64,000 nucleotides of DNA. Source: Squalus acanthias. Lineage: Eukaryota. Made by a program: the position numbers and the translations under genes. The notes under the pieces are model-generated. The model had not been told where the DNA came from and searched no databases. It saw nothing but the letters and a program-made list of their open reading frames with translations. This document shows, piece by piece, positions 10,569-57,618 of the stretch (its first letter is position 1; the number at the start of each line of letters is the position of its first letter). Location: the NCBI GenBank assembly GCA_030390025.1, contig CM059431.1, positions 95,172,001-95,236,000 of the forward strand, written 5' to 3'.

Positions 10569-13388
10569 TGACCGCAATGAGGCACCCAGGTTCTCAGATG
10601 ACTCCCTCCATATGCTTGTGGAGGGAGACAGAGCACGCAGGGAGGTGCTCTTCCCTTCTAATGGATGGAAGAGACCTCTCCAGGAGACAACAAGAGCCTG
10701 ACTCCAAATAGCAGAGGAGGTGAACAGCAGGGATGTGGTCAGGAGGACCTGGGTGCAGTGCCGGAAACACTTCAATGACCTCATTAGATCAGGAAAGGGG
10801 AATACAAAGCCACACTCAACTTCATAAGAACATAAGATATAAGAGCAGGAGTCGGCCATATGGCCCCTCGAGCCTGCTCCGCCATTCAATAAGATCATGG
10901 CTGATCATCGACCTCAACTCCACTTTCCTGCCCGATCTCCATATCCCTTGATTCCCCTAGAGTCCAAAAGTCTATCTATCTCAGCCTTGAATATACTCAA
11001 AGACTCAGCATGCACAGCCCTCTGGGGCAGAGAATTCCAAAGATTCACAACCCTCTGAGTGTAAAAATTCCTCCTCATCTCAGTCTTAAATGGCCTACCC
11101 CTTATCCTGAGACTATGCCCCCTAGTTCTAGACACTCCAGCCAGGGAAACAACCTCTCAGCACCTACCCTGTCAATCCCCTTCAGAATCTTGTATGTTTC
11201 AATGAGATCACCTCTCATTCTTCTAAACTCCAGAGAGTATAGGCCCATTCTACACAATCTCTCATCATAGGACAGCCCTCTCATCCCAGGAATCAATCTA
11301 GTGAACATTCATTGCACCAACTCCAAGGCAAGTATATCCTTCCTTAGATAAGGAGACCAAAACTATGCACAATATTCCAGGTGTGGTCTCACCAATTGTA
11401 GCAAGACTTCCTTACTCTTCTACTCCAACCCCCTTGCAATAAAGGCCAACATGCCATTTGCCTTCCTTATTGCTTGCTGTACCTGCATGCTAGCTTTCTG
11501 TGTTTCTTGCATGAGGACACCCAATTCTCTCTGAACACCAACATTTGAAAGTTTCTCACCATTTAAAAAATATTCTGTTTTTCTATTCTTCCTACCAAAG
11601 TGAATAACTTCACATTTCCCTACATTATACTTCATCTGCCATCTTACTGCCCACTCACTTAGTCTATCTATATCCCTTTGCAGACACTTTGTGATCTCCT
11701 CACAGCTTACTGTCCCACCTAGCTTTGTATCATCAGCAAACTTGGATACATTACACTCAGTCCCTTCATCTAGATCATTAATATAGATTGTAAATAGATT
11801 GTAAATAGTATCCTGCTATGCCTCTCATCACATTCCCATCACTCTGCCTTCCCAACCCTACTCCTGCACATCCTTACTCACATCAACATACCTTGCACGT
11901 CCACCCATCCCTCTCTCTACCTACATTATCACATCCCCATCTGACTAGCCACCCCTCACATTCACCCTCATCCTAATGCAATCATAACAACACACAAGGA
12001 GGCCACTTAGCTTAGGCACCACACTCCATCATAGTCTCCCTCTAAAGATCTAACCCATCCATTCCTTACACTCATTCCATCACACTCACTCAAACTTCTC
12101 TTCTTTCCCTCCTTACAGGAAAAGAGAGCCCACAATAAGAGAACCGGAGGTGGAACGCCATCATTGGCGACCCTAACAACAGCAGAGGAGGCTGCCTTGG
12201 AGGTTTCTGGAGTCGCCGAGCAGCTGGAGGTAGGAGACAGAGAGAGGGGGACATCTCAGCAACTTGGTGACAGAATTACATATCATACAGCTACATGGCA
12301 TACATCAGTCACTCATGGGCACTGATGTCAGCAGCCACTGAATGGTCATCATATGCATAATGGTATATGCACCTATTCTTCATATGACATATCTAACTCA
12401 TCTCTTTACTCTCCCACAGGTCCATCAAGAGCACCCCCCCCCCCCCCACCCCCCACTGTCCCGGAGGAAGAGGAGGATGACTCCTCAGAGGAGCCTCCAG
12501 CCTTTGAGGGTGCATCGTCACCCGACAAGTGCACCCAGCATCAGTGCAGAAACGCAGACCTGGGTGGATCCCACACGAGATAGAGTAGTGTTGTCACCTG
12601 GTGTCTCACTCACGAGTGAGCAAGAGCTGATGTTGGAGACAGGGACAGCAGTGGAGAGTCCTCACCGGAGGGCGCAGGATGCTCCCAGCTCTGCTCAGCT
12701 GCATACAGACGCTGAGCCTCAGGGGGCCATCCAGAAAGAGGGTGATCCTGGAGGTGCAGGAGGCTTTGACAGGTTTTGCGAGCGCGATGTCTGCAAATGT
12801 TCAGAGAATGGAGGAGTCCCTCTCTAGTATCAGCACCACCGTGTCACAGGCAATGGGGACTTTGGGCTCTTCCATGGATAGGATGGCCACCTGCATGGAG
12901 CAGCTAATGCGCCAGTCACAGGAGCACATGGTCTCTGTGGAGAATAGATGGCAGAGGCTCATAGACCTCCTCTCTAGGAGGGATGTCAACGTAGACGTGG
13001 GTCCTCATGGGCCCACTGATGTGCAGCAAGGTGCTCTCCAGCTCCTTGCTAGCAGGGAAGTGTGGGTGGCCATGAGAGGGATGGTGGTGAGAGGGGACAT
13101 GGAAGTGTGGGCTCCTCACAAAGTGCTCACACTTCTCCCCCTGTTGCCACCCCCTCAGTCAGAGCCCCAGAAGCCTCCTCGATCGCGATGGCCGAGTCTG
13201 CCTCTGCACAGTCGCAGGAGGAGCAGACTTTGGTGGGACCATCAGAGGCTCCAAAACCCAGAGGACGTCTGCCAAAAGCGTCTAAGTAGTCGCAGCAGGG
13301 AAGTGAGCTGGCTGCCTCTTCTCTGCTGAAGCCACAGGGGTAGCACCTCGTAGAAGAACATGTAAGAGAAAGATGAAACACAAGTAGA
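10569..13388 (+). pseudogene. Harbinger Myb/SANT-like DNA-binding protein, 3 exons (~10569-10797, 12119-12267, 12420-13388)
   Basis: APRFSDDSLHMLVEG...IAEEVNSRDVVRRTWVQCRKHFNDL; polypyrimidine-CAG acceptors before exons 2 and 3; stops and frameshifts. Confidence 0.8.
10823..11810 (-). mobile_element. CR1 LINE 3' fragment in Myb intron 1
   Basis: MKYNVGKCEVIHFG, RRMRGDLIETYKIL, CR1 tail. Confidence 0.9.
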
Positions 13389-13639: not shown

Positions 13640-16441
13640 CAACCTGGCACAGCATGTGGCAGCCATATGGGTATAATGCGTAAAAGTTAAGTAAATCTGG
13701 CCATAATGAGCCCATCCCTGGCCTCCGGGGCAGCAATGTGCTCGGGTACTGGTGGGATCTGGACCGCAGCTTCCTCCTGCTCCTCCTCCTCCTCTGATGA
13801 TGAGGCTGTGCACTCAGTGCCTTGCTCCTCATGCAGCGTTAATCTTCGCTGCTGCACTATGTTGTGCAGTCCATGACGATTCTGGAGACCCTGGCTGGTG
13901 CGTACTGAAGGGTTTGCATCCCAGAGTACTTAAGGAGGTGGCCTTGGAAATAGTGGATGCATTGACGATCATTTTCCAACATTCCTTAGACTCTGGATCA
14001 GTTCCGATGGAGTGGAGGGTGGCCAATGTAACCCCTCTTTTTAAAAAAGGAGGGAGGGAGAAAGCAGGGAATTATAGACCGGTCAGCCTGACATCGGTCG
14101 TGGGTAAAATGATGGAAGCAATTATTACAGATGTCATAACAGACCATTTGGAAAGTGGCGACATGATAGGTCCAAGTCAGCATGGATTTGTGAAAGGGAA
14201 ATCATGCTTGACAAATCTTCTGGAATTTTTTGAGGATGTTTCCAATAAGGTGGACAGGGGGGAACCAGTAGATGTGGTGTATTTGGACTTTCAGAAGGCC
14301 TTCGACAAGGTCCCACACAAGAGATTGGTGAGCAAAGTTAAAGCACATGGGATTGGGGGTAATGTGTTGACGTGGATTGAGAACTGGTTGGCACACAGGA
14401 AACAAAGAGTAGGAGTAAATGGGTACTTTTCAGAATGGCAGGCAGTGACCAGCGGGGTACCGCAGGGTTCGGTGCTGGGACCCCAGCTGTTTACATTATA
14501 TATTAATGATTTGGACGAAGGGATTAAATGTAATATCTCCAAATTTGCGGATGACACTAAATTGGGAGGCAGTGTGAACAATGAGGAGGATGCTAAGAGG
14601 CTACAGAGTGACTTGGACAGGTTGGGTGAATGGGCAAATGTATGGCAGATGAAGTACAATGTGGATAAATGTGAGGTTATCCACTTTGGTGGTAAAAATA
14701 GAGAGGCGGACTATTACCTGAATGGTGGCAGATTAGGGAAAGGGGAGGTGCAACGAGACCTGGGCGTCATGGTACATCAGTCACTGAAGGTGGGAATGCA
14801 AGTGCAGCAGGCAGTCAAGAAAGCAAACGGAATGATGGCCTTCATAGTAAGGGGATTTGAGTACAGGAGTAGGGAGGTGATGCTGCAGTTGTACAGGGCC
14901 TTGGTGAGGCCACACCTGGAGTATTGTGCGCAGTTTTGGTCTCCTAACTTAAGGAAGGACATTCTTGCTATTGAGGGAGTGCAGCGAAGGTTCACTAGAT
15001 TGATTCCTGGGATGGCCGGACTGACATATCAAGAAAGATTGGGTCAACTGAACTTGTATCCTCTGGAGTTCAGAAGAATGAGGGGGGATCTTATAGAGAC
15101 ATTTAAAATCCTGACTGGTTTAGACAAATTAGATGCGGGCAGAATGTTCCCAATGTTAGGGAAAACTAGAACCAGGGGTCACAGTCTAAGGATTAAGGGG
15201 AAGCCATTTAAGACTGAGCTGAGGAGGAACTTCTTCACCCAGAGAGTGGTGAATCTATGGAATTCTCTTCCACAGAAGGTTGTTGAGGCCAGTTCGCTAA
15301 ATATATTCAAAAGGGAGTTAGATATAACACTCACAACTAGGGGGATCAAGGGGTATGGCGAGAAAGCAGGAATGGGGTACTGAGGTAGCATGTTCAGCCA
15401 TGAACGCATTGAATGGCGGTGCAGGCTCGAAGGACCGAATGGTCTACTCCTGTACCTATTTTCTATGTTTCTATGTTTCTATATGTCAAGGCATCTGAAG
15501 TGTATTTTCAGCATGCCTATCGTCTGCTATATGACACAGCTGGTGGAAATGTGGCTTTCACTATATCTCTCCTGGGCCTCAGTACCTGGCCTCCTCAAGG
15601 GTGTCATGAGCCACGTCTTCAGTGGATAGCCCTTGTCTCCAAGCAGCCAGCCAGGAAGTCTGTTTGGAGGAGCGAAGAGCGAAGGGAGGGTGGACTGGTG
15701 CAGGATGAGTCATGGCAGCTGCCAGGGAATTTGGCGCACATATGCATGATAATCTTCCTATGGTTTCAGACGAGCTGCACATTGAGGGAGTGGAAGCCCT
15801 TGCAGTTGACAAAGACTCTTGGGTTATGATGGGATGCCCTGATTGCCACATGTGTGCCGTCAATGACACCCTGCACCCGTGGGAAGCCAGCCAGAGCGAC
15901 ATAGGCCAGCGCCCACTCAGTAACACTGGCTTCATCAGTGGCAAAGTTGATATAATTGGCAGACTTGTCAAATGGGGCATCGGTGGCCTGTGTGATGCAT
16001 CTGTGGGCGGCCGACTGCAAGATGCCACAAATGTCTGCTGCAGATCCCTGGAAGGAGCCTGAGGTGAAGAAGTTGAGGGCAATGGTGACTTTGACAGCCA
16101 CTGGTAAGGCATGTCCACCAGGTCCTCTGGGCTGCAGGTCTTGGTCCAGCAATCTGCAAATGTCTGACGACCTGGCGTGATAGCCTGAGTCTCCTTTGGC
16201 ACTGCTGCTCAGTCATGTTGAGGAAGCTCATCCTCTGCCCGTATACCCTGTGCTGGGGGCATTGCTTCTGGCGCAGTGCAGCCCTGCGCTGATGCCCTCT
16301 GTCCTGTGCAGCATCAGGTGGTTGAGGAGAAGGTTGGTGATGTTGTTGTTGGTGCTGCTGGTGTGCCTGGTGCTGCTGGTGTTGGGGCTCATCATGGTCA
16401 GATTCTGAGGACCAAGGTGAGACAGTATAAACGATAGCCAT
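13640..16441 (-). pseudogene. Harbinger DDE transposase (HARBI1-like), split by CR1 13906-15481
   Basis: [61 protein letters not shown]; frameshifts; 3' end approximate. Confidence 0.9.
13906..15481 (+). mobile_element. Young 5'-truncated CR1 with an uninterrupted RT frame
   Basis: About 490 aa without a stop (NYRPVSLTS, YLDFQKAFD, GVPQGSVLGP, KFADD) ending at 15383; (TTCTATGT) tail. Confidence 0.95.
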
Positions 16442-17855: not shown

Positions 17856-19152
17856 TTTTTTTATTCATTCATGGGATGTGGGCGTCGCTGGCAAGGCCAG
17901 CATTTATTGCCCATCCCTAACTGCCCTTGAGAAGGTGGTGATGAGCTGCCTTCTTGAACTGCTGCAGTCCGTGTGGTGAAGGTGCTCCCACAGTGCTGTT
18001 AGGGAGGGAGTTCCAGGATTTTGACCCAGCGACGATGAAGGATCGGTGATATATTTCCCAGTCAGGATGGTGTGTGACTTGGAGAGGAACTTGGAGGTGG
18101 TGGTGTTCACCACCTGCCCTTGTCCTTCTAGGTGGTAGAGGTCGCGGGTTTGGGAGGTGCTGTCGAAGAAGCCTTGGTGAGTTGCTGCAGTGCATCTTGT
18201 AGATGGTACACACTGCAGCCACGGTACGCCGGTGGTGGAGGGAATGAATGTTTAAGGTGGTGGATGGGGTGCCAATCAAGTGGGCTGCTTTGTTCTGGAT
18301 AGTGTCGAGCTTCTTGAGTGTTGTTGAGCTGCACTCATCCAGGCAAGTGGAGAGTATTCCATCACACTCCTGACTTGTGCCTTGTAGATGGTGGAAAGGC
18401 TTTGGGGAGACAGGAGGTGACTCACTTGCCACAGAATACCCAGCCTCTGACCTGCTCTTGTAGCCACAGTATTTATGTGGCTAATCCAGTTAAGTTTCTG
18501 GTCAGTGGTGACCCCTAGGATGTTGATGGTGGGGGATTCAATGATGGTAATGCTGTTGAATGTCATGGGGAGGTGTGTAGACTATTGTTGGAGATGGTCA
18601 TTGCCTGGAACTTGTATGGCATGAATGTTACTTGTCAGCCCAAGCCTTAATTTTGTCCAGGTCTTGCTGCATGCGGGCACGCTTCATGATCTGAGGAGTG
18701 CGAATGGAACTACACACTGTGCATTCATCAATGAACACTTCTGACCTTATCATTGAGGGAAGGTCATTGATGAAGCAGCTGAAGATGTTTGGGCCTAGGA
18801 CACTGCCCTGAGGAACTACTGCAGCAATGTCCTGGGGCTGAGATGATCGGCATCCAACAACTACAACCATCTTCCTTTGTGCTAGGTATGACTCCAGCCA
18901 GTGGAGAGCTTCCCCTGATTCCCATTAACTTCAGTTTTACTAGTGCTCCTTGATGTCACACTCGGTCAAATGCTGCCTTGATGTCTTCTTCTAATTAGTG
19001 TTCAACATAGAGGAGCACTGATTTATCAGCTGAGAGAGGGCAGTAGGTGGTAATCAGCAGGAGGTTTCCTTGCCCATGCTTGACCTGAAGCTATGAGACT
19101 TCATGGGGTCCGGAGTCAATGTTGAGGACCCCCAGGGCCACTGCCTCCTGAC
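17856..19152 (-). mobile_element. Zenon-like CR1-group LINE, internally deleted (EN fragment joined to RT and 3' end)
   Basis: Reverse-complement similarity to ~40020-40180 and ~41510-42630. Confidence 0.85.
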
Positions 19153-19155
19153 CTG

Positions 19156-19344
19156 GGATACAGTAGCATAGTGGTTATGTTACTGGACTAGTAATCCAAA
19201 GGCTTGGACTAATGATCCAGGGACGTGAGTTCAAATTCCACCACGGCAGCTGGGGGGTTTAATTAAATAAATCTGGAATAAAAATCTGATATCTGTAATG
19301 GTGACCATGAAACTATCGGATTTTGACTAAAAAAAAAATCTGCT
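19156..19344 (+). mobile_element. tRNA-derived SINE/LINE head, same as 39382 onward
   Basis: A box TAGCATAGTGG, arms TGGACTAGTAATCCA and TGGACTAATGATCCA, B box GAGTTCAAATTCC. Confidence 0.8.
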
Positions 19345-19906
19345 TCATCCAATGGCAGAGTACGGACTGTTCACTGAATAGAGTCATCCAATGGCAGAGT
19401 ACGGACTGTTCACTGAATAGAGTCATCCAATGGCAGAGTACGGACTGTTCACTGAATAGAGACATCCAATGGCAGAGTACAGACTGTTCACTGAATAGAG
19501 TCATCCAATGGCAGAGTACGGACTGTTCACTGAATAGAGTCATCCAATGGCAGAGTACGGACTGTTCACTGAATAGAGTCATCCAATGGCAGAGTACGGA
19601 CTGTTCACTGAATAGAGTCATCCAATGGCAGAGTACAGACTGTTCACTGAGTAGAGACATCCAATGGCAGAGTACGGACTGTTCACTGAATAGAGTCATC
19701 CAATGGCAGAGTACGGACTGTTCACTGAATAGAGTCATCCAATGGCAGAGTACGGACTGTTCACTGAATAGAGACATCCAATGGCAGAGTACAGACTGTT
19801 CACTGAATAGAGACATCCAATGGCAGAGTACAGACTGTTCACTGAATAGAGACATCCAATGGCAGAGTACAGACTGTTCACTGAATAGAAACATCCAATG
19901 GCAGAG
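19345..19906. repeat. 39-bp minisatellite, ~14.4 copies
   Basis: Unit TCATCCAATGGCAGAGTACGGACTGTTCACTGAATAGAG, head-to-tail, near-identical. Confidence 0.98.
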
Positions 19907-19926
19907 CTAGTAACCTGAGAAATCCA

Positions 19927-24084: not shown

Positions 24085-25478
24085 TGTTTCATTCATGGGA
24101 TGTGGGCGTCGCTGGCAAGGAGCATTTATTGCCCACCCCTATTTGCCCTTGAGAAGGTGGTGGTGAGCTGCCTTCTTGAACCGCTGCAGTCCATGTGGTG
24201 AAGGTACTCCCATAGTGTTGGTAGGGAGGGAGTTCCAGGATTTTGTCCCAGCGACGATGAAGGAATGGCGATATATTTCCAAGTCAGGATGGTGTGTGAT
24301 TTGGAGGGGAACTTGAAGGTGATGGTGTTCCCATGTGCCTGCTGCCCTTGCTCTTCTAGGTGGTATAGGTCGTGGGTTTTGGAGGTGCTGTCGAAGAAGC
24401 CTTAGTGAGCTACGTCAGTGCATCTAATAGATATTACACACTACAGCCACTGCAGTAACATTCGCGCCACACAAGTGCCAGACAATGACTATCTCCAATA
24501 AGCGAGAGTCTAACCACTAATCCTTGACATTCAATGGCATAACCATCACCGAATCCCCCACCATCAATATCCTGGGGGTCACCATTGACTAGAAACTTAA
24601 CAGGACCAACCACATAAATATTATGGCAACAAGAGCAGGTCAGAGGCTGGGTATTCCGCAGGAATGTCTCACATCCTGACTCCCCAAAGCCTTTCCACCA
24701 TCTACAAGGCACCAGTCAGGAGTGTGATAGAATACTCTCCACTTGTCTGGATGAGTGCAGCTCCAACAACACTCAAGATGCACTGCAGCAACTCACCAAG
24801 GCTTCTTCGACAGCACTTCCCAAATCCGCGACCTCTACCCACCTAGAAGGACAAGGGCACCAGGTACATGGGAACACCACCACCTCCAAGTTCCCCTCTA
24901 AGTCACACACCATCCTGACTTGGAAATATATCACCGTTCCTTCATAGTCGCTGAGTCAAAATCCTGGAACTCCCTCCCTAACAGCACTGTGGGAGTACCT
25001 TCACCACTTGGACTGCAGCGGTTCAAGAAGGCGTCTCACTACCACCTTCTCAAGGGCAATTAGGGATGGGCAATAAATGCTGGCCTTGCCAGCGATGTCC
25101 ACATCCCAGGAACGAAGTAAAAAAATTGTGGCTGGTCCAGTTAAGTTTCTGGTCAATGTTAACCAGAATGACCAATGGATGTTGATGGTGGGAGATTCGG
25201 CAAAGGTAATGCTGTTGAATGTCAAGGGGCGGTGGTTAGACTCTCTCTTGTTGGAGACAGTCATTGCCTGGCACTTGTGTGGCGTGAATATTACTTGCCA
25301 TTTATCAGCCCAAGCCTGACTGTCATCCAGGTCTTGCTGCATGCGGGCATGGACTGCTTCATTATCTGAGGAGTTGTGAATGGAACTGAACACTGTGCAA
25401 TCATCAGCGAACATCCCCACTTCTGAACTTATGATGGAGGGAAGGTCATTGATGAAGCAGCTGAAGATGGTTGGGCTA
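24085..25478. mobile_element. Zenon-like LINE fragments: - (24085-24453), + (24454-25125), - (25126-25478)
   Basis: Shared 3' end GGGCAATAAATGCTGGCCTTGCCAGCGA; RT motif SEVGMFADDC. Confidence 0.85.
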
Positions 25479-39381: not shown

Positions 39382-42300
39382 AGTGGTAGTTTAGTGGTAA
39401 TGTCACTGAGCTAGTAATCCCGAGGTCTGGACTAATGATCCAGAGTTGTGAGCTCAAATCCCACAAAGGCAGCTGGGAAATTTAAATTCAGTAAATTAAA
39501 TAAATCTGGAATAAAAAACTATCAGCAGTAATGGTGACCATGAAACAATCGGATTGTCGTAAAAACCCATCTGGTTTACTAATGTCCTTCAGGGAAAGAA
39601 ATCTGCTGTCGTTACCCTGGTCTGGCCTATACATGACTCCAGACTCACAGCAATGTGGTTAACTCTTAACTGCCCTCTGAAATGGCCTAGCAAGTCACTC
39701 AGTTGTAACTAACTGCTACGAAACATAATAAGAATGAAACCGGACGGACCACATGGCATCGACCTTGGCACCGGCTACGGACACGACAATGGCACACCTA
39801 GCCCAGTCGACCCTACAAAGTCCTCCTAACCAACATCTGGGGACTTGTGCCAAAATTGGGAGAACTGTCCCACAGACAAGACAAGCAACAGCCTGACATA
39901 GTCATACTGACAGAATCGTACCTTTCAGCTAATGTCCCAAACTCCTCCATCACCATCCCTGGGTATGTCCTGTCCCACAGGCAGGACAGATCCACCAGGG
40001 GTGGTGGCACAGTGGTATACAGTCGAGGAGGAGTGGCCCTGGGAGTCCTCAACATTGACTCCGGACCCCATGAAGTCTCATGGTTTCAGGTCAAGCATGG
40101 GCAAGAAAACCTCCTGTTGATTACCACCTACTGCCCTCCCTCAGCTGATGAATCAGTACTCCTCCATGTTGAACACCACTTGGAAGAAACACTGAGAGTA
40201 GCAAGGGCACAGAATGTACTATGGGTGGGGGACTTCAATGTCCATCAGCAAGAGTGGCTCGATAGCACCACTACTGACCGAGCTGGCTGAGTCCTGAAGG
40301 ACATAGCTGCCAGTCTGGGCCTGCGACAGGTGGTGAGAGAACCAACACGTGGGAAAAACCTACTTGACCTCGTCCTCACCAATCTACCTGTCGCAGATGC
40401 ATCTGTCAATGACAGTATTGGTAGCAATGACCACCGCACAGTCATTGTGGAGACAAATCCCGACTTCACACTGAGGACACCCTCCATCGTGTTGTGTGGC
40501 ATTACCACCATGTTAAATGGGATAGATTCTGAACAGATCTAGCAGCTCAAAACTGGGCATCCAAGAAGCACTGTGGCCCAACAGCAGCAGCAGAATTGTA
40601 TTCCACCACAATCTGTAACCTCATGGCCTGGCATATCCCTCACTCTACCATTACCACCAAGTCAGGGGACCAACCCTGGCTCAATAAGGAGTGTAGAAGG
40701 GCATGCCAGGAGCAGCATCAGGCGGACACCTAAAAATGAGGTGCCAACTTGGGGAAGCTGCAACACAGGACTACATGCATGCTAAAAAGCAGAAGCAGCA
40801 TGCTATAGAAAGGGCTAAGCGAGCCCACAATCAACGGATCAGATCAAAGCTCTGCAGTCCTGCCACATCCAGTCGTGAATGGTGGTGGACCATTAAACAA
40901 CTAACGGGAGGAGGAGGCTCCATGAATATCCCCATCCTCAATGATGGTGGAGCCCAGCACGTGAGTGCAAAAGACAAGGCTGAAGCGTTTGCAACCATCT
41001 TCAGCCAGAAGTGCCAAGTGGATGATCCATATCGGCCGACTCCTGAGGTCCCCTCCATCACAGAAGCCAGTCTTCAGCCAATTCGATTCACTCCACGGCT
41101 GAGCGCACTGGATACATCAAAGGCCATGGGCCCCGACAACATCCCGGCTATCGTGCTGAAAACTTGTGCTCCAGAACTAGCCATGACTCTAGCCCAGCTG
41201 TTCCATTACAGCTACAACACTGGCATCTATCCAACAATGTGGAAAACTGCCCAGGTATTTCCTGTCCACAAAAAGCAGGACAAAATCCAATCTGGCCAAT
41301 TACTGCCTCAACAGTCTACTCTCAATCATCAGCAAAGTGATGGAAGGTGTCATCGACAGTGCTATCAAGCGGCACCTACTCACCAAAAACCTGCTCACTG
41401 ATGCCCAGTTTGGGTTCCGCCAAAACCACTCGGCTCCTGGCCTCATTACAGCCTTGGTCCAAACATGGACAAAGGAGCTGAATTCCAGAGGTGAGGTGAG
41501 AGTGACTGCCCTTGACATCAAGGCTGCATTTGACTGAGTGTGGCATCAAGGAGCCCTAGCAAAACTGAAGTCAATGGGAATCGGGGGAAAACGCTCCACT
41601 GGCTGGAGTCATACCTAGCACAAAGGAAGATGGTTGTGGTGGTTGAAGGTCAATCATCACAGCCCCAGGATATTGCTGCCGGAGTTCCTCAGGGCAGTGT
41701 CCTAGGCCCAACCATCTTCAGCTGCTTCATCAATGACCTTCCCTCCAACATAAGGTCAGAAATGGGGATGTTCGCTGATGATTCTACAGTGTTCAGCGCC
41801 ATTGACAACTCCTCAGATAATGAAGCAGTCCATGCCCTCATGCAACAAGACCTGGACGACGTTCAGGCTTGGGCTGATAAGTGGCAGGTAACATTCGCAC
41901 CACATAAGTGCCAGGCAATGACTATCTCCAACAAGCGAGAGTCTAACCACCTCCCCTTGACATTCAATGGCATTACCCTCGCTGAACCCCCACCATCAAC
42001 ATCCTGGGGGTCACCATTAACCAGAAGCTTAACTGGACCAGCCGCATAAATACTTTGGCAACAAGAGCAGGTCAGAGTTTAGGTATTCTGTGGCGAGTGT
42101 CTCACCTCCTGACTCAACAGAGCCTTTCCACCATCTACAAGGCACAAGTAAGGAGTGTGATGGAATACTCTTCACTTGCCTGGATGAGTGCAGCTGCAAC
42201 AACACTCAAGAATCTTGACACCATCCAGGACAAAGCAGCCCGCTTGATTCGCTCCCTCCACCACTGGCGTACCGTGGCTTCAGTGTGTACCATCTACAAG

Positions 42301-42630
42301 ATGCACTGCAGCAACTCGCCAAGGCTTCTTCGGCAGCACCTCCCAAATCTGCAGCCTCTTGTACCTAGAAGGACAAGGGCAGCAGGCGCATGGGAACACC
42401 AGCACCTCCAAGTTCCCCTCCAAGTCACACACCATCCTGACATAGAAGTATATCGCCGATCCTTTGTCGTTGCTGGGTCAAAATCCTGGAACTCCCTACC
42501 TAACAGCACTGTGGGAGTACCTTCACCGCACGGACTGCAGCTGTTCAAGAAGGCGGCTCACCACCACCTTCTCAAGGGCAGTTAGGAATGGGCAATAAAT
42601 GCTGGCCTTGCCAACGATGCCAACATCCCA
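39382..42630 (+). mobile_element. Near full-length ORF1-less CR1-group (Zenon-like) LINE with a tRNA-derived 5' head
   Basis: Pol III A/B boxes at the 5' end; a single EN-RT ORF from ATG 39734 to stop 42585 with several disruptions; short 3' UTR. Confidence 0.85.
39734..42585 (+). pseudogene. APE endonuclease plus reverse transcriptase (disrupted)
   Basis: NIWGL, DIVILTES, VGDFNVH, LDLVLTN, SNDH; GPDNIP, QFGFR, ALDIKAAFD, GVPQGSVLGP, MFADD, WNSLP. Confidence 0.9.
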
Positions 42631-42631
42631 T

Positions 42632-44935
42632 AAACTGCAGAGTACACTATCTATCCCCCGAATTATCAAATCCCCTATGCCTATAACATTTCTTTTCTGC
42701 CCCTTCCCCCCCATTGGACTGCCTCCTGCTCTACATTGCAATGGTTAGCATTCTGCTCATCCTCTCTGCAGCCTTCATCCTTATCCTCACAGGTAGCTAG
42801 TAGAATGTACCTGTTGGATAGGACCAGTGTCTTTGGTACTTCCTCCTCTACCTCCTCTAGGTTCCCCTTACCCTGCTAACTGGCAGTCGCACTCTCCCCT
42901 TCCTGCATCTGTGCTTTTCTCTGAGGTGTGACTGTACTCTGGAGAAAACTATCCAGATATTCCTCCCCCTCCTTTATGTGTCAGAGTGTCTCTAATGCAC
43001 ACTCCAGCTCAAGGACTCTGAGCTGGAGTGTCTCAAGGTAAAGACATTTCCTGGAGATGTGGCAATCTGTGACCGTCTTGCTGTCCACAAACTCCCACAT
43101 ACTGCAGTCCTGACACACTACATTTGCTGACATTTCTAATCTTTATTAATTGTTAGCATTAATGTATTTGTAGAGTTAATAGAATCACTTGAAGTCTAGT
43201 ATTAAATAGTTGATGGATTAGTTTGATTTTGAATTAATTGGTAATTAATTATGCTGATTATTTATGTATAGCAGATGCTTATTAATGCAAATTGGATCCT
43301 TTTAATGTTAGTTTCCTGCATTTAGTTTATTTTATCCCCATATATCTATTTAGCCTCTTAGGTCTATTTGTTTACCAAAAGAATATTATCTTCTTAATAC
43401 TTAAGATTCTGAGGGACAAAATCAATCTCCACTTGGAGAGGCAAGGATTAATCAGGGTTAGCCAACATGGCTTTGTCAAGAGAAGATCATGTCTGACTAA
43501 TTTGATTGAATTTTTTGAGGGGGTGACTAGGTGTGTGGATGAGGGTAACGCAGTGGATGTGGTATACATGGATTTCAGTAAGGCCTTCGATAAAGTCCCG
43601 CACAGGAGACTGGTCAAGAAGGTAAGAGCCCATGGAATCCAGGGTGACTTGGCACATTGGATACAAAACTGGCTCAGTGGCAGAAGGCAGAGGGTGATGG
43701 TCGAAGGTTGTTTTTGTGACTGGAAGCCTGTGGCCAGTGGGGTACCACAGGGATCGGTGCTGGGTCCCTTGCTGTTTGTGGTCTACATTAACGACTTGGT
43801 TATGAATGTAAAAGGTATGATCAGTAAGTTCGCGGATGATACAAAAATTGGTAGGGTGGTAAATAGCGAGGAGGGTAGCCTCAGTCTGCAGGACGATATA
43901 GATGGGTTGGTTAGATGGGCGGAACAGTGGCAAATGGAATTTAATTTGGAAAAGTGCGAGGTGATGCACTTTGGAGGGACTAACAAGGCAAGGGAATACA
44001 CAATGAATGGTAAGACCCTAGGCAAGACGGAGGGTCAGAGGGATCTTGGTGTGCAAGTACACACATCCCTGAAGGCGGCGGAACAGGTGGATAAGGTGGT
44101 AAAAAAGGCATATGGGATACTTGCATTCATTAGCCGAGGCATAGAATATAAGAGCAAGGAGGTTATGATGGAGCTGTATAAAATACTGGTTAGGCCACAT
44201 CTGCAATACTGTGTGCAGTTCTGGTCGCCACACTACAGGAAGGATGTGATCGCTTTGGAGAGGGTGCAGAGGAGATTCACCAAAATGTTACCCGGGCTGG
44301 AGTGCTTCAGCTATGAAGAGAGACTGGGCAGATTGGGTTTGTTTTCCTTGGAGCAGAGGAGGCTGAGGGGGGACATGATTGAGGTGTACAAAATTATGAG
44401 GGGCATAGATAGGATGGATACTAAGGAGCTTTTTCCCTTAGTAGAGGGGTCTATAACAAGGGGGCATAGATTCAAGGTAAAGGGCGGGAGGTTTAGAAGG
44501 GATTTGAGAAATAACTTTTTCACCCAGAGGGTGGTTGGAGTCTTGAACTCACTGCCTGAAAGGGTTGTGGAGGCAGGAACCCTCACAACATTCAAGAAGC
44601 ATTTGGATGAGCACTTGAAATGCCATAGCATACAAGGCTACGGACCAAATGCTGGAATATGGGATAAGATTAGACAGGGCTTGATGGCCGGCGCGGACAC
44701 GATGGGCCGAAGGGCCTCTATCCGTGCTGTATAACTCTATAAATGATAAATTAAGCACTTGGCTCTAATTCCTCAGGCTCCGCTAACTATGATAACTGTG
44801 CTGACTATGATGTCACTTTTTGAGTTTTTGCCTCTGTTTGTCTGGTATCTGCCATTCTGGGTCTCCTGATAGGCTCTGCTGCTGCCGGCTCTCACTTTCT
44901 GTTTGAATGTGCTGCTCGGGGTTTCCTGCTACGCT
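42632..44935 (-). mobile_element. CR1 5' part (5' UTR plus ORF1 zinc-finger/esterase start), interrupted by 43403-44740
   Basis: - strand MSANVVCQDCSMWEF near 43130 and VIGIGDLIIRGID (GDS-I-IR-like esterase block). Confidence 0.65.
43403..44740 (+). mobile_element. 5'-truncated CR1 with an open RT frame
   Basis: SQHGFVKRRSCLTN, YMDFSKAFD, KFADD uninterrupted within ORF 43292-44734. Confidence 0.95.
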
Positions 44936-45960
44936 TTACATATATCACAGGCTCTAATGTATACCTCCAGATTCTAAATCATGTCGCAAGCTCTAATGTA
45001 TATCTACAGATTCTAATGTATGTCACATGTTCTAATATATGTCACATGTTCTAATGTATGTTTCCAGATTCTACTGTATGTCGCAGGTTCTAATGTATGT
45101 TTTTTTTATTCGTTCATGGGATGTGGGTGTCGCTGGCAAGGCCAGCATTTATTGCCCATCCCTAATTGCCCTTGAGAAGGTGGTGGTGAGCCGCCTTTTT
45201 GAACCGCTGCAGTCCGTGTGGTGAAGGTACTCCAACAGTGCTATTAGGTAGGGAGTTCCAGGATTTTGACCCAGCGACGATGAAGGAACAGTGATATACT
45301 CCAAGTCAGGATGGTGTGTGACTTGGAAGAGAATTGGAGGTGGTGGTATTCCCATGCACCTGCTGCCCTTGTCCTTTTAGGTGGAAGAGGTTGCGGGTTT
45401 GGGAAGTGCTGCCAAAGAAGCCTTGGCGAGTTACTGCAGTGCATCTTGTAGATGGTGCACACTGCAGCCACGGTACGCCGGTGGTGGAGTGAATGAATAT
45501 TTAAGGTGGTGCCAATCAAGCGAGCTGCTTTGTCTTGGATGATGTTGAGCTTCTTGAGTGTTGTTGGCATCTTGAGTATGTTTCCGGATTCTAATGTTTC
45601 TCATAGAATCTGATGTATGTCAGAGGTTCTCATGTATAGCTCCAGATTCTAGTTTATGTCTCCATGTTCTAGGTTATCTCGCAGGTGCTAATATATATCT
45701 CCAGATTCTAATGTACATCACAGGTTCTAAAGTATATCATAGGTTCTAATGAATGTTTCCATATTCTACAGTATATTGCAGGTTCTAATGTATGTCGCAG
45801 GTATTAACATATGTTTCCGGATTCTGATGTTTGTCACAGATTTTAATGTATGTCAATAGTTCTAATGCAAATCTCTAGATTCTTATGTATGTCACAGGTT
45901 CTAATGTTTATCTCCAGGTTCTAATGTATGTCACAGATTCTAATGTATATCGCAAGTACT
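44936..45960. repeat. Degenerate ~19-bp minisatellite (CAGGTTCTAATGTATGTCA-like), split by a Zenon-like 3' fragment at 45102-45570 (-)
   Basis: TTCTAATGTA recurs at ~19-bp spacing; related short patch at 51665-51790. Confidence 0.85.
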
Positions 45961-56664: not shown

Positions 56665-57618
56665 ATGGCAGGGCAGCTCACACCCGTGGAATGCACATCC
56701 TGTGCCATGTGGGAAGTCCTGGACACCTCCCGTGGTCTGGACGACCACATGTGCGGGAAGTGTCGCCAGCTCCAGCTGCTCGAGCACCGGGTTATGGAGC
56801 TTGAGCGGCAGCTGCAGTCACTGCTGTGCATCGCGAGGCTGAGAGCTACGTGGATAGCACGTTTTGGGAGGTGGTCACCCCGCAGCTTAAGAGTGTGCAG
56901 GCAGAGAGGGAATGGGTGACTGCCAGACAGAAGAGGAGGGCCAGGCAGGTAGTGCAGGAGTCCCCTGAGCCCATCTTGCTCACCGACCAGTATTCGGTGC
57001 TGAGTACTGGTGAGGGCGATGGTTCCTCTAGGGAGTGCAGCCAGAGCCAGGTCCACAGCACCATGGTAGGCTCAGCTGCAAAGGTGGAGGGGGGGAAGAG
57101 GAGAGGGAGAGCAATAGTGGCAGGGGATTCAATAGTTAGGGGAGCAGACAGGTGTTTCTGCCACCGCAGACATGACTCCAGGATGGTATGTTGCCTCCCT
57201 GGTTCCAGGGTCAAGGATGCCACTGAACGGCTGCAGGGCATTCTATGGGGGGAGGGTGAACAGCCAGAGGTTGTGGTCCATATCGGTACCAATGACATAG
57301 GTAGGAAGAGGGATGAGGTCCTGCAGGCAGAGTTTAGGGAGCTAGGAAAGAGGTTAAAAAGCAGGAACTCAAAGGTAGTAATCTCTGGATTACTACAAGT
57401 ACCACGTGCTAGTGAGTACAGAAATAGGAAGATAGAGCAGATGAATGCATGGCTGGAGAGATAGTGTAGGAGGGAGGGCTTTAGATTCCTGAGGAATTGG
57501 AACCGTTTCTGGGGGAGGTGGGACCTCTACAAGTCAGAAAGGTTGCACCTCAACGGGAACGGGACCAATATCCTCACGGGAGGGTTTGCTATTGCTGTTT
57601 GGATGGGTTTAAACTAGC
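56665..57618 (+). pseudogene. CR1 ORF1: zinc finger/coiled coil plus SGNH esterase (one frameshift, one stop)
   Basis: CTSCAMWE...CGKCRQL; VAGDSIVRG, VVHIGTND, LHLNGNGT. Confidence 0.88.

Follow-up and report, generated by a model that had tools for sequence, protein, structure and literature searches.

The 64,000-nucleotide (nt) stretch of Squalus acanthias DNA considered here (GenBank assembly GCA_030390025.1, contig CM059431.1, positions 95,172,001 to 95,236,000), termed the window below, carries on its plus strand, at 39385-42639, a decayed copy of a long interspersed nuclear element (LINE). It consists of a tRNA-like head, a body, an open reading frame (ORF) for endonuclease (EN) and reverse transcriptase (RT), and a tail, which in the family form a retrotransposition unit of ~3.3 kb. 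The head resembles tRNA-Thr(AGU) and occupies 39385-39462, where the window copy is without the first ~7 nt of the family 5′ end, GGGAAC-GGTAGCGTAGTGG. Inspection of the sequence places an A box, TAGTTTAGTGG (TAGCGTAGTGG in the family), at 39387-39397, one base off the position given in the initial annotation, and a B box, AGCTCAAATCC (AGTTCAAATCC in the family), 53 nt past it at 39451-39461, where that annotation had expected a B-box-like element near 39450. In contigs of public sequencing runs aligned to the window, position 39453 within the B box is changed from C to T.

The non-coding body (39463-39707, ending in ...CACTCAGTTGTA) is common to the LINE and a partner short interspersed nuclear element (SINE), as alignment with SINE copies shows. 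A TAA at 39706-39708 closes the EN frame on its upstream side and marks the junction, where SINE-type body gives way to LINE-specific sequence. From there the EN-RT ORF, of 972 codons in the family source, extends over 39709-42585 to the stop TAG at 42583-42585, with Pfam matches to Exo_endo_phos (PF03372) and Exo_endo_phos_2 (PF14529) at 39802-40287 and to RVT_1 (PF00078) at 41193-42046. A short ORF (~49 codons in the family) starts in the +1 frame at the ATG 39734-39736 and overlaps the start of the EN-RT ORF. The 3′ tail shared with the SINE (GGGCAATAAATGCTGGCC...CCCATAAAC, 42572-42639) holds the last four codons, the stop and the 3′ untranslated region (UTR), and includes AATAAA at 42594-42599; the terminal GAAT-T(n)A(n) present in other copies is missing here. 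The continuous apurinic endonuclease-RT frame that was initially read from the ATG does not exist in this copy, since its EN-RT frame is interrupted by numerous stops and frameshifts. The window copy is an old, dead member of a very abundant single-ORF EN-RT LINE family.

Junction, termini and head of the unit

Recurrence of the head-to-ORF junction, which the initial annotation had named as a check, was found throughout the genome. A search of the window's own 3.7-Gb assembly with positions 39560-39900 (341 nt, spanning the body/ORF junction) gave 9,536 candidates, the best 40 of which all cover 334-341 of the 341 nt, and with the window itself set aside, the other 39 matches have 91-93% identity. 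We took 29 copies with their flanks from the best matches to the window, three segmental duplicates included, and the same head-body/ORF junction is present in every one of them (29/29). Genome-wide, a junction-centred 24-mer (9 nt of body and 15 nt of LINE-specific sequence) matches 11,676 sites at up to 3 mismatches (reversed control 4) and an endonuclease-start 24-mer matches 13,641 sites at the same tolerance (reversed control 0), so that most copies reaching the EN start extend into the SINE-type body. A linker 24-mer tried as a family marker (531 matches) turned out to be subfamily-specific and was dropped.

Fourteen of the 29 copies begin at the equivalent of window positions 39384-39386 and 15 are truncated at points scattered over 39401-39567, while 10 are continuous to 42600-42635. 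Full-length LINE copies and SINE copies have a sharp 5′ terminus in common, GGGAAC, and the flanks of full-length copies are unrelated up to GGGAAC and beyond the tail, with the exception of three copies on contig 26. These three (L038, L039 and L056, at 17.5-18.1 Mb) share both flanks and thus are segmental duplicates, not separate insertions; their 3′ T/A tails differ, being T4A6, T5A5 and T1A9. The family 3′ end reads CCCATAAAC-GAAT-T(1-8)-A(n). The 3′ termini of LINE and SINE copies taken together have the form GAAT(GAAT)-T(n)-A(m), with 0-9 T and a summed T and A length that is about constant, for which a TTTAAA-like target or priming on a run of U may be responsible. The longest target-site duplication has 5 nt (CTTAT in L055), and none is evident in the other fetched copies. 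Two hallmarks of LINEs are seen, namely a series of 5′-truncated copies with one common 3′ end, the family fragments in the window being 3′ parts only, and endonuclease and RT domains within one ORF, for which full-length relatives carry the same three Pfam families.

We are nearly certain that the unit of tRNA-like head, body, ORF and tail is real and family-wide. It is very improbable that the head stands outside the unit, whether as an adjacent independent SINE, as the product of a small-RNA/LINE chimera formed anew in each copy, or because the LINE inserts site-specifically into a SINE. Flanking repeats are dense in the window, as such readings would have it, but the junction is constant at 11,676 sites, and beyond head and tail the sequences around full-length copies are unrelated. 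Insertion specifically into a SINE is further contradicted by the lack of SINE body upstream of 5′-truncated copies and by the last ORF codons, which lie within the shared tail. The accidental SINE neighbour for which the initial annotation had allowed, repeated independent chimeras and site-specific insertion were all excluded on the junction counts and the sharp common termini. Outside this assembly, public sequencing runs labelled as four organisms (A-D) contain at least half of the stretch's sampled 31-mers and those labelled E-G contain 14-46%; by this spread over several organism labels, the family is common to several related species at near identity.

The textbook A-box consensus is TRGCNNAGTGG, to which the family A box fits perfectly, and better-preserved copies combine TAGCGTAGTGG, a 53-nt spacer and AGTTCAAATCC. 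A box and B box occur together in 10 of the 29 copies, which are approximately the ones whose 5′ end is complete, against a single weak match among 45 relatives. The Rfam tRNA model gives 17.5 bits (E 0.7) on the window copy and 22.3 bits on L055 (E 0.013 in a 201-nt search), the gathering score being 29. In the Rfam alignment the L055 head has good D and T arms, an anticodon loop CUAGUAA (AGU, Thr) and a 22-nt insert that resembles a second anticodon-type hairpin. No Rfam tRNA reached the gathering threshold in the window, nor E<=0.1 over six whole loci. ARAGORN made two calls among 13 loci, for L052 a tRNA-Thr(agt) and for L043 a tRNA of undetermined type, and no call in the window or in the 45 relatives. 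For the tRNA-like head initially described, the boxes and the L055 score speak for the likeness, which stays sub-threshold; the head is thus tRNA-derived in the way of SINE heads, recognisable and below curated thresholds. A 5′ tRNA-derived head with A and B boxes is a hallmark of SINE2 elements, from which the LINE departs by its ~3.3 kb and 972-codon ORF, SINE2 elements being non-coding and 100-700 bp long. Extra 5′ G residues were considered as a cap signature and rejected: among 12 independent LINE copies 3 have them, and among ~9 SINE copies none, which is chance level for flanking Gs.

Coding capacity and relatives

In all 29 copies the EN frame (KVLLTNIWGLVPK...) is open upstream to the junction TAA (GTTG-TAA-CTAACC), and it encodes a basic N-terminal extension (..ATKHNKNETGRTTRHRPRHRLRTRQ..) before the endonuclease without any in-frame ATG. 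The ATG at 39734 lies where the initial annotation put it but is not the EN-RT start, as it stands in the +1 frame relative to the endonuclease in the window copy and in all 29 others, at constant spacing. For reconstruction of the ORF, 17 near-complete copies were aligned and their codon columns read in the ORF frame. Stops common to at least half of the 17 occur only in columns 0-106 (head and body), at column 1079 (the natural stop) and beyond it. The TAA of column 106 is found in 17 of 17, columns 107-1078 have no majority-shared stop, and 110 frameshifting indel events are each common to at most 3-4 copies. With stops and frameshifts each confined to a minority of copies, the source ORF was intact over its 972 codons and followed by a 3′ UTR of ~55 nt; an intact ORF is present in none of the 29 fetched copies, the longest open stretch being 685 amino acids (aa). 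Head and SINE body make up the 325 nt ahead of the ORF, where most copies share stops in the ORF frame and no ORF1 is present, in agreement with the initial annotation.

The nearest proteins in the large collection searched are unnamed, 36-44% identical and 930-1,050 aa long, on contigs of 3.1-3.6 kb, and this combination of length and contig size shows a clade with a single ORF and no ORF1. Judged by these relatives, the absence of ORF1 is a clade trait and not an adaptation. The N-termini of relatives (e.g. M-ATKKNAKPRSNQRKNTRK...) align with LTATKHN... of the family, and the C-termini align too; from the N-terminal alignment, the shark ORF begins at the position of the relatives' Met, which is exactly the junction, with the AUG absent. 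Inspection by eye revealed no slippery site at which a −1 shift could lead from the frame of the ATG to that of the EN. A short upstream ORF that overlaps the main one, as in the shark family, is also a feature of RTE elements. The ORF1 upstream of the EN-RT ORF that characterises CR1 sensu stricto is lacking, and the ~3.3 kb, one EN-RT ORF and very short 3′ UTR of CR1-Zenon/RTE-like elements are all present. None of the 45 long relatives shows a tRNA-like head.

Intact single-ORF relatives (30-44% identity) were also met on 3-6-kb environmental contigs (L080-L159), in a nucleariid transcriptome and in a crab, which indicates a clade widespread in eukaryotes. A sevengill shark NCBI model named ‘aldo-keto reductase family 1 member B1-like’ (P0054) is 74% identical to the LINE RT over 37% of the query, and this gene model probably includes a LINE fragment. 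The window itself is rich in LINE remains, with an RVT_1 match in 12 of 85 ORFs of at least 110 aa; nine of these 12 belong to other families, whose RT is 23-38% identical to that of the head-bearing family. The plus-strand ORF 56805-57461 has GDSL-lipase/OSK-type matches (Pfam PF13472, PF17182) and is part of another LINE; we take it to be the esterase-type ORF1 of CR1-like LINEs.

Partner SINE and runs of T

A SINE with the same head, as anticipated by the initial annotation, does exist and has the same body and tail as well. In 20 fetched loci it consists of LINE positions 1-326/329 joined directly to 3224/3226-3300 (the last ~75 nt), that is the LINE minus 2.9 kb including the ORF, and at ~400 nt this form is short and non-coding as a SINE should be. 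SINE copies are 72-94% identical to the 5′ part of the LINE, and the majority sequences of the two 5′ regions show ~11 differences per 330 positions. A pattern running from body end to tail, CACTCAGTT-N(0-14)-TAGGRATGGGCA, has 403 exact matches in the genome (control 0) and includes several junction types. In contigs of public runs (DNA and presumed RNA), deletion joints connect 39679-39707 to 42535-42583 and 39605 to 42364, and a further joint, 39770 to 42498, retains ~60 nt of LINE-specific sequence; the overall range is 39605-39770 to 42364-42583. The summed depth of these contigs, from four runs, continues across the head-body/ORF junction (0.58M, 0.46M and 0.80M in the three bins around it), but as depth does not measure copy number no conclusion is based on it. 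Head 24-mers at up to one mismatch number 4,037 for the LINE type and 12,487 for the SINE type genome-wide. When position lists were compared by hand over the first 46.1 Mb of contig 1, 100 exact EN-start sites had an exact LINE-type head in 13 cases and a SINE-type head in 5, located 305-450 nt upstream on the same strand, and hence both head variants sit on LINEs. These comparisons favour SINE-like elements having been born repeatedly by internal deletion of the head-bearing LINE.

The window has a SINE-type head with partial body (GGTTATGTTACTGGAC) of its own at 19162-19322 on the plus strand, which ends at an A-run. Directly after it lies a tandem array of a ~39-nt unit (CATCCAATGGCAGAGTACGGACTGTTCACTGAATAGAGT...) at 19330-19907, which yields spurious long ORFs on both strands. 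Other pieces of the LINE family in the window are a 5′-truncated copy with an internal deletion at 17868-19149 (minus strand, 84-92% identity), four rearranged 3′ fragments at 24092-25476 (two on each strand) and a 3′ fragment at 45112-45566 (minus strand).

The initial annotation had drawn attention to the scarcity of T-runs on the sense strand, and its counts held. The window copy (39382-42630, 3,249 nt, plus strand, T 21.0%) has no run of four or more T (T4+), against 18 such runs of A (A4+), 8 of G (G4+) and 8 of C (C4+), and thus no T4+ lies between start and end, as in type-2 genes of RNA polymerase III (Pol III). Sense T4+ are likewise absent from the seven other family fragments in the window, 3,105 nt in total, and the CR1-type copy at 13906-15383 has five. 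The 29 copies together (T 20.4% over 85,612 aligned nt) contain 14 T4+, compared with ~118 expected from base composition, alongside 373 A4+, 227 G4+ and 247 C4+. The T4+ sites are scattered and mostly private, none being common to more than 3 of the 29 copies, and for this reason the family source is taken to have had none, in keeping with the initial annotation.

Relative to base composition, exact runs T1, T2, T3 and T4 occur at 1.13, 0.93, 0.49 and 0.13 of expectation. Near-source copies have zero T4+ where mononucleotide shuffles expect 4.3-4.8 (P 0.004-0.009), and 8-10 runs of three or more T (T3+) per element where such shuffles give 21-23 (P <=0.002). Synonymous-codon shuffles of five open segments put T3+ at 0.33-0.68 of expectation (P 0.003-0.28), and the same ratio is 0.79-1.12 in 13 control ORFs. 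Eleven other LINE coding fragments in the window (8,265 nt) have 25 T4+ against 24.7 expected. Each of 45 intact relative ORFs from metagenome contigs has 7-54 T4+, so that none (0/45) is free of them, and relatives with 23.5-26% T still match the T4+ expectation. T-run avoidance is thus a real trait specific to the head-bearing family, with moderate statistical weight. A 3′ T-run as a built-in terminator was also considered and found unsupported, as four or more T occur in just 5 of 19 LINE tails; in SINE tails the count is 7 of ~19.

Transcription and origin of the head-bearing LINE

New copies keep the exact SINE terminus and carry no upstream flank, so the template RNA must start at that nucleotide, and an internal A/B-box promoter is a known device for fixing the RNA start at the 5′ end of an element. 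In the model that we propose, the retrotransposition unit would begin at +1 of the tRNA-Thr-like head and continue through the ~245-nt body, the 972-codon ORF and the ~55-nt 3′ UTR, and its template RNA would be started by the internal promoter of the head and hence made by Pol III, as for the SINE. Passage of Pol III through 3.3 kb would be possible only since the source is without a T4+ terminator, and T-runs would be kept out of the coding strand as a requirement of so long a Pol III unit. Protein would be made from uncapped RNA by non-AUG initiation, candidate starts being an in-frame ACG, the third codon after CTAACC, or a −1 shift from the short ATG ORF; alternatively it would be supplied in trans from other family transcripts via the shared tail. 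The structured head and body perhaps act in internal initiation. Whether Pol III initiates the template RNA is, in our judgement, evenly balanced. The full proposal, an autonomous retrotransposon that would be a protein-coding Pol III gene, free of T-runs by selection, translated without cap and AUG, and spawning SINEs by deletion, is tentative and rather unlikely to hold in all its parts.

Several considerations tell against transcription by Pol III. To our knowledge there is no natural 3-kb Pol III transcript, uncapped RNA makes a poor mRNA, and an ORF without AUG leaves translation unexplained. The zero count of T4+ compares with 1.8-2.1 expected from dinucleotide shuffles (P 0.12-0.15) and 1.55 per 2 kb from synonymous-codon shuffles (P 0.16), and for the 8-10 T3+ dinucleotide shuffles give 12-14 (P only 0.06-0.10). 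The five segments used in the codon shuffles overlap each other, the 29-copy sample is biased as it consists of best matches to the window and includes three segmental duplicates, and the copies descend from related sources, so that the evidence is little more than one sequence. The selection against terminators put forward in the initial annotation fares better for T3+, depleted beyond codon usage in this family only, than for T4+, which remain within the codon-shuffle expectation; for T4+ by itself this is the outcome that the annotation had named as refuting its proposal. No fixed terminator is found at the LINE 3′ end, given the 5 of 19 tails noted above, and the AATAAA and A-rich end would fit processing by RNA polymerase II (Pol II) as well. 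LINEs are described as Pol II-transcribed in Kojima (2018; PMC5786205) and Kojima (2024; PMC10886601), the latter adding that Pol III limits element length. It is possible, if somewhat less than probable, that head and body are an inherited passenger 5′ UTR, that Pol II starts at the same nucleotide from an internal promoter, and that the paucity of T follows from composition and codon usage; a protein-coding RNA normally needs a cap, and the shuffle expectations and the tail suit such an account. It sits less well with a 5′ terminus that equals that of the SINE and the tRNA-like +1, with A and B boxes that are intact in the family, or with a T3+ depletion that exceeds codon usage and is not seen in the 13 controls, and the missing AUG is ill-suited to ordinary cap-dependent scanning too.

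A separate matter, compatible with either polymerase, is how the head was acquired. The LINE may have gained the 5′ part of an older SINE in a single template switch, after which the head-bearing form spread and the LINE would not be the parent of the SINE; we hold this to be a serious alternative that falls short of the favoured origin by deletion. The sampled SINE copies diverge more from their own majority (3.6-22%) than LINE 5′ regions do (0.9-6%, with the window copy at 9.1%), but this age comparison is biased, the LINE copies being best-scoring matches. The LINE part begins at codon 2 without AUG, as expected of a 5′-truncated template, and the shark SINE HE1 is placed in the old V-SINE superfamily (table of PMC3747384). 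By contrast, the body/tail boundary of the SINE equals the body/ORF boundary of the LINE, which deletion explains without coincidence. Several deletion joints are independent, the one from 39770 to 42498 even keeping LINE-specific sequence, and both head variants occur on LINE copies (the 13 and 5 pairs), all of which argues for deletion from the LINE.

The U6/small-RNA-L1 chimeras are reportedly one-off dead copies with variable junctions, whereas the shark family has one fixed junction in >11,000 copies and an intact source ORF, and the copy-to-copy variation of a template-switch chimera is absent from the 29 copies. The two have in common a Pol III RNA fused 5′ of LINE sequence (Buzdin et al., 2002, cited in PMC5499810). 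Full-text literature searches returned no description of a LINE with a tRNA-derived head; Repbase and Dfam lay outside these searches, so that prior curation is possible. The HE1 SINE and HER1 LINE of sharks and rays (Ogiwara et al., 1999, as a row in PMC3747384) are likewise an elasmobranch tRNA-derived SINE and a partner LINE with a common 3′ tail, and may be the same pair. A SINE head and body on the 5′ end of the LINE is not stated for HE1/HER1 in the literature consulted, and the comparison is by description rather than by sequence.

By size and layout the shark family is like Zenon, a CR1 lineage of Lepidoptera with a single EN-RT ORF and ~3.3-3.5 kb (3,315-3,534 bp in PMC6740152). Persaeus, which joins the Zenon 5′ end to its 3′ end, arose several times and reached high copy number (PMC6740152), and resembles the SINE formation described here. 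We regard Zenon and Persaeus as the closest analogue in the literature consulted, with the difference that Zenon derivatives are presented there without any Pol III promoter (PMC6740152), whereas the shark parent LINE has a tRNA-like head and its derivative is in consequence a bona fide SINE. In the bipartite LINEs of Kojima (2018; PMC5786205), the middle of the SINE equals the LINE 5′ region and its tail the LINE 3′ end, as here. LINE 5′ regions in SINE bodies are reported in that paper for the RTE and Vingi clades only, and no LINE resembling conserved SINE bodies had been found (Kojima, 2018). Its model adds the small-RNA head after deletion, on a Pol II bipartite LINE, whereas here the head is on a full-length coding LINE. 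A small-RNA-derived Pol III promoter in a retroelement class that is usually Pol II-transcribed is also known from TRIMp3 elements (Cassandra, Helenus, Ajax), which by the account in Kojima (2024; PMC10886601) are short (311-1,263 bp) and non-coding, whereas the shark element has 3.3 kb and encodes its own EN-RT.

In textbooks and recent reviews, LINEs are Pol II-transcribed and coding, and SINEs are Pol III-transcribed, non-coding and shorter than 700 bp. A coding LINE whose true 5′ end is the Pol III head of a SINE, and which is present in thousands of copies, makes this divide less sharp. With the shark family, the origin of a SINE can be followed in a concrete pair of parent and offspring, in which the head would be on the full LINE first and deletion come after. 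Annotators of shark repeat libraries should not assume that a ‘SINE+LINE’ consensus is an assembly chimera. It becomes directly testable whether a long retrotransposon RNA that is translated can be a product of Pol III, and if the element does prove to be a Pol III coding element, the concepts of a SINE and an internally deleted LINE would merge, which could explain the origin of conserved SINE bodies.

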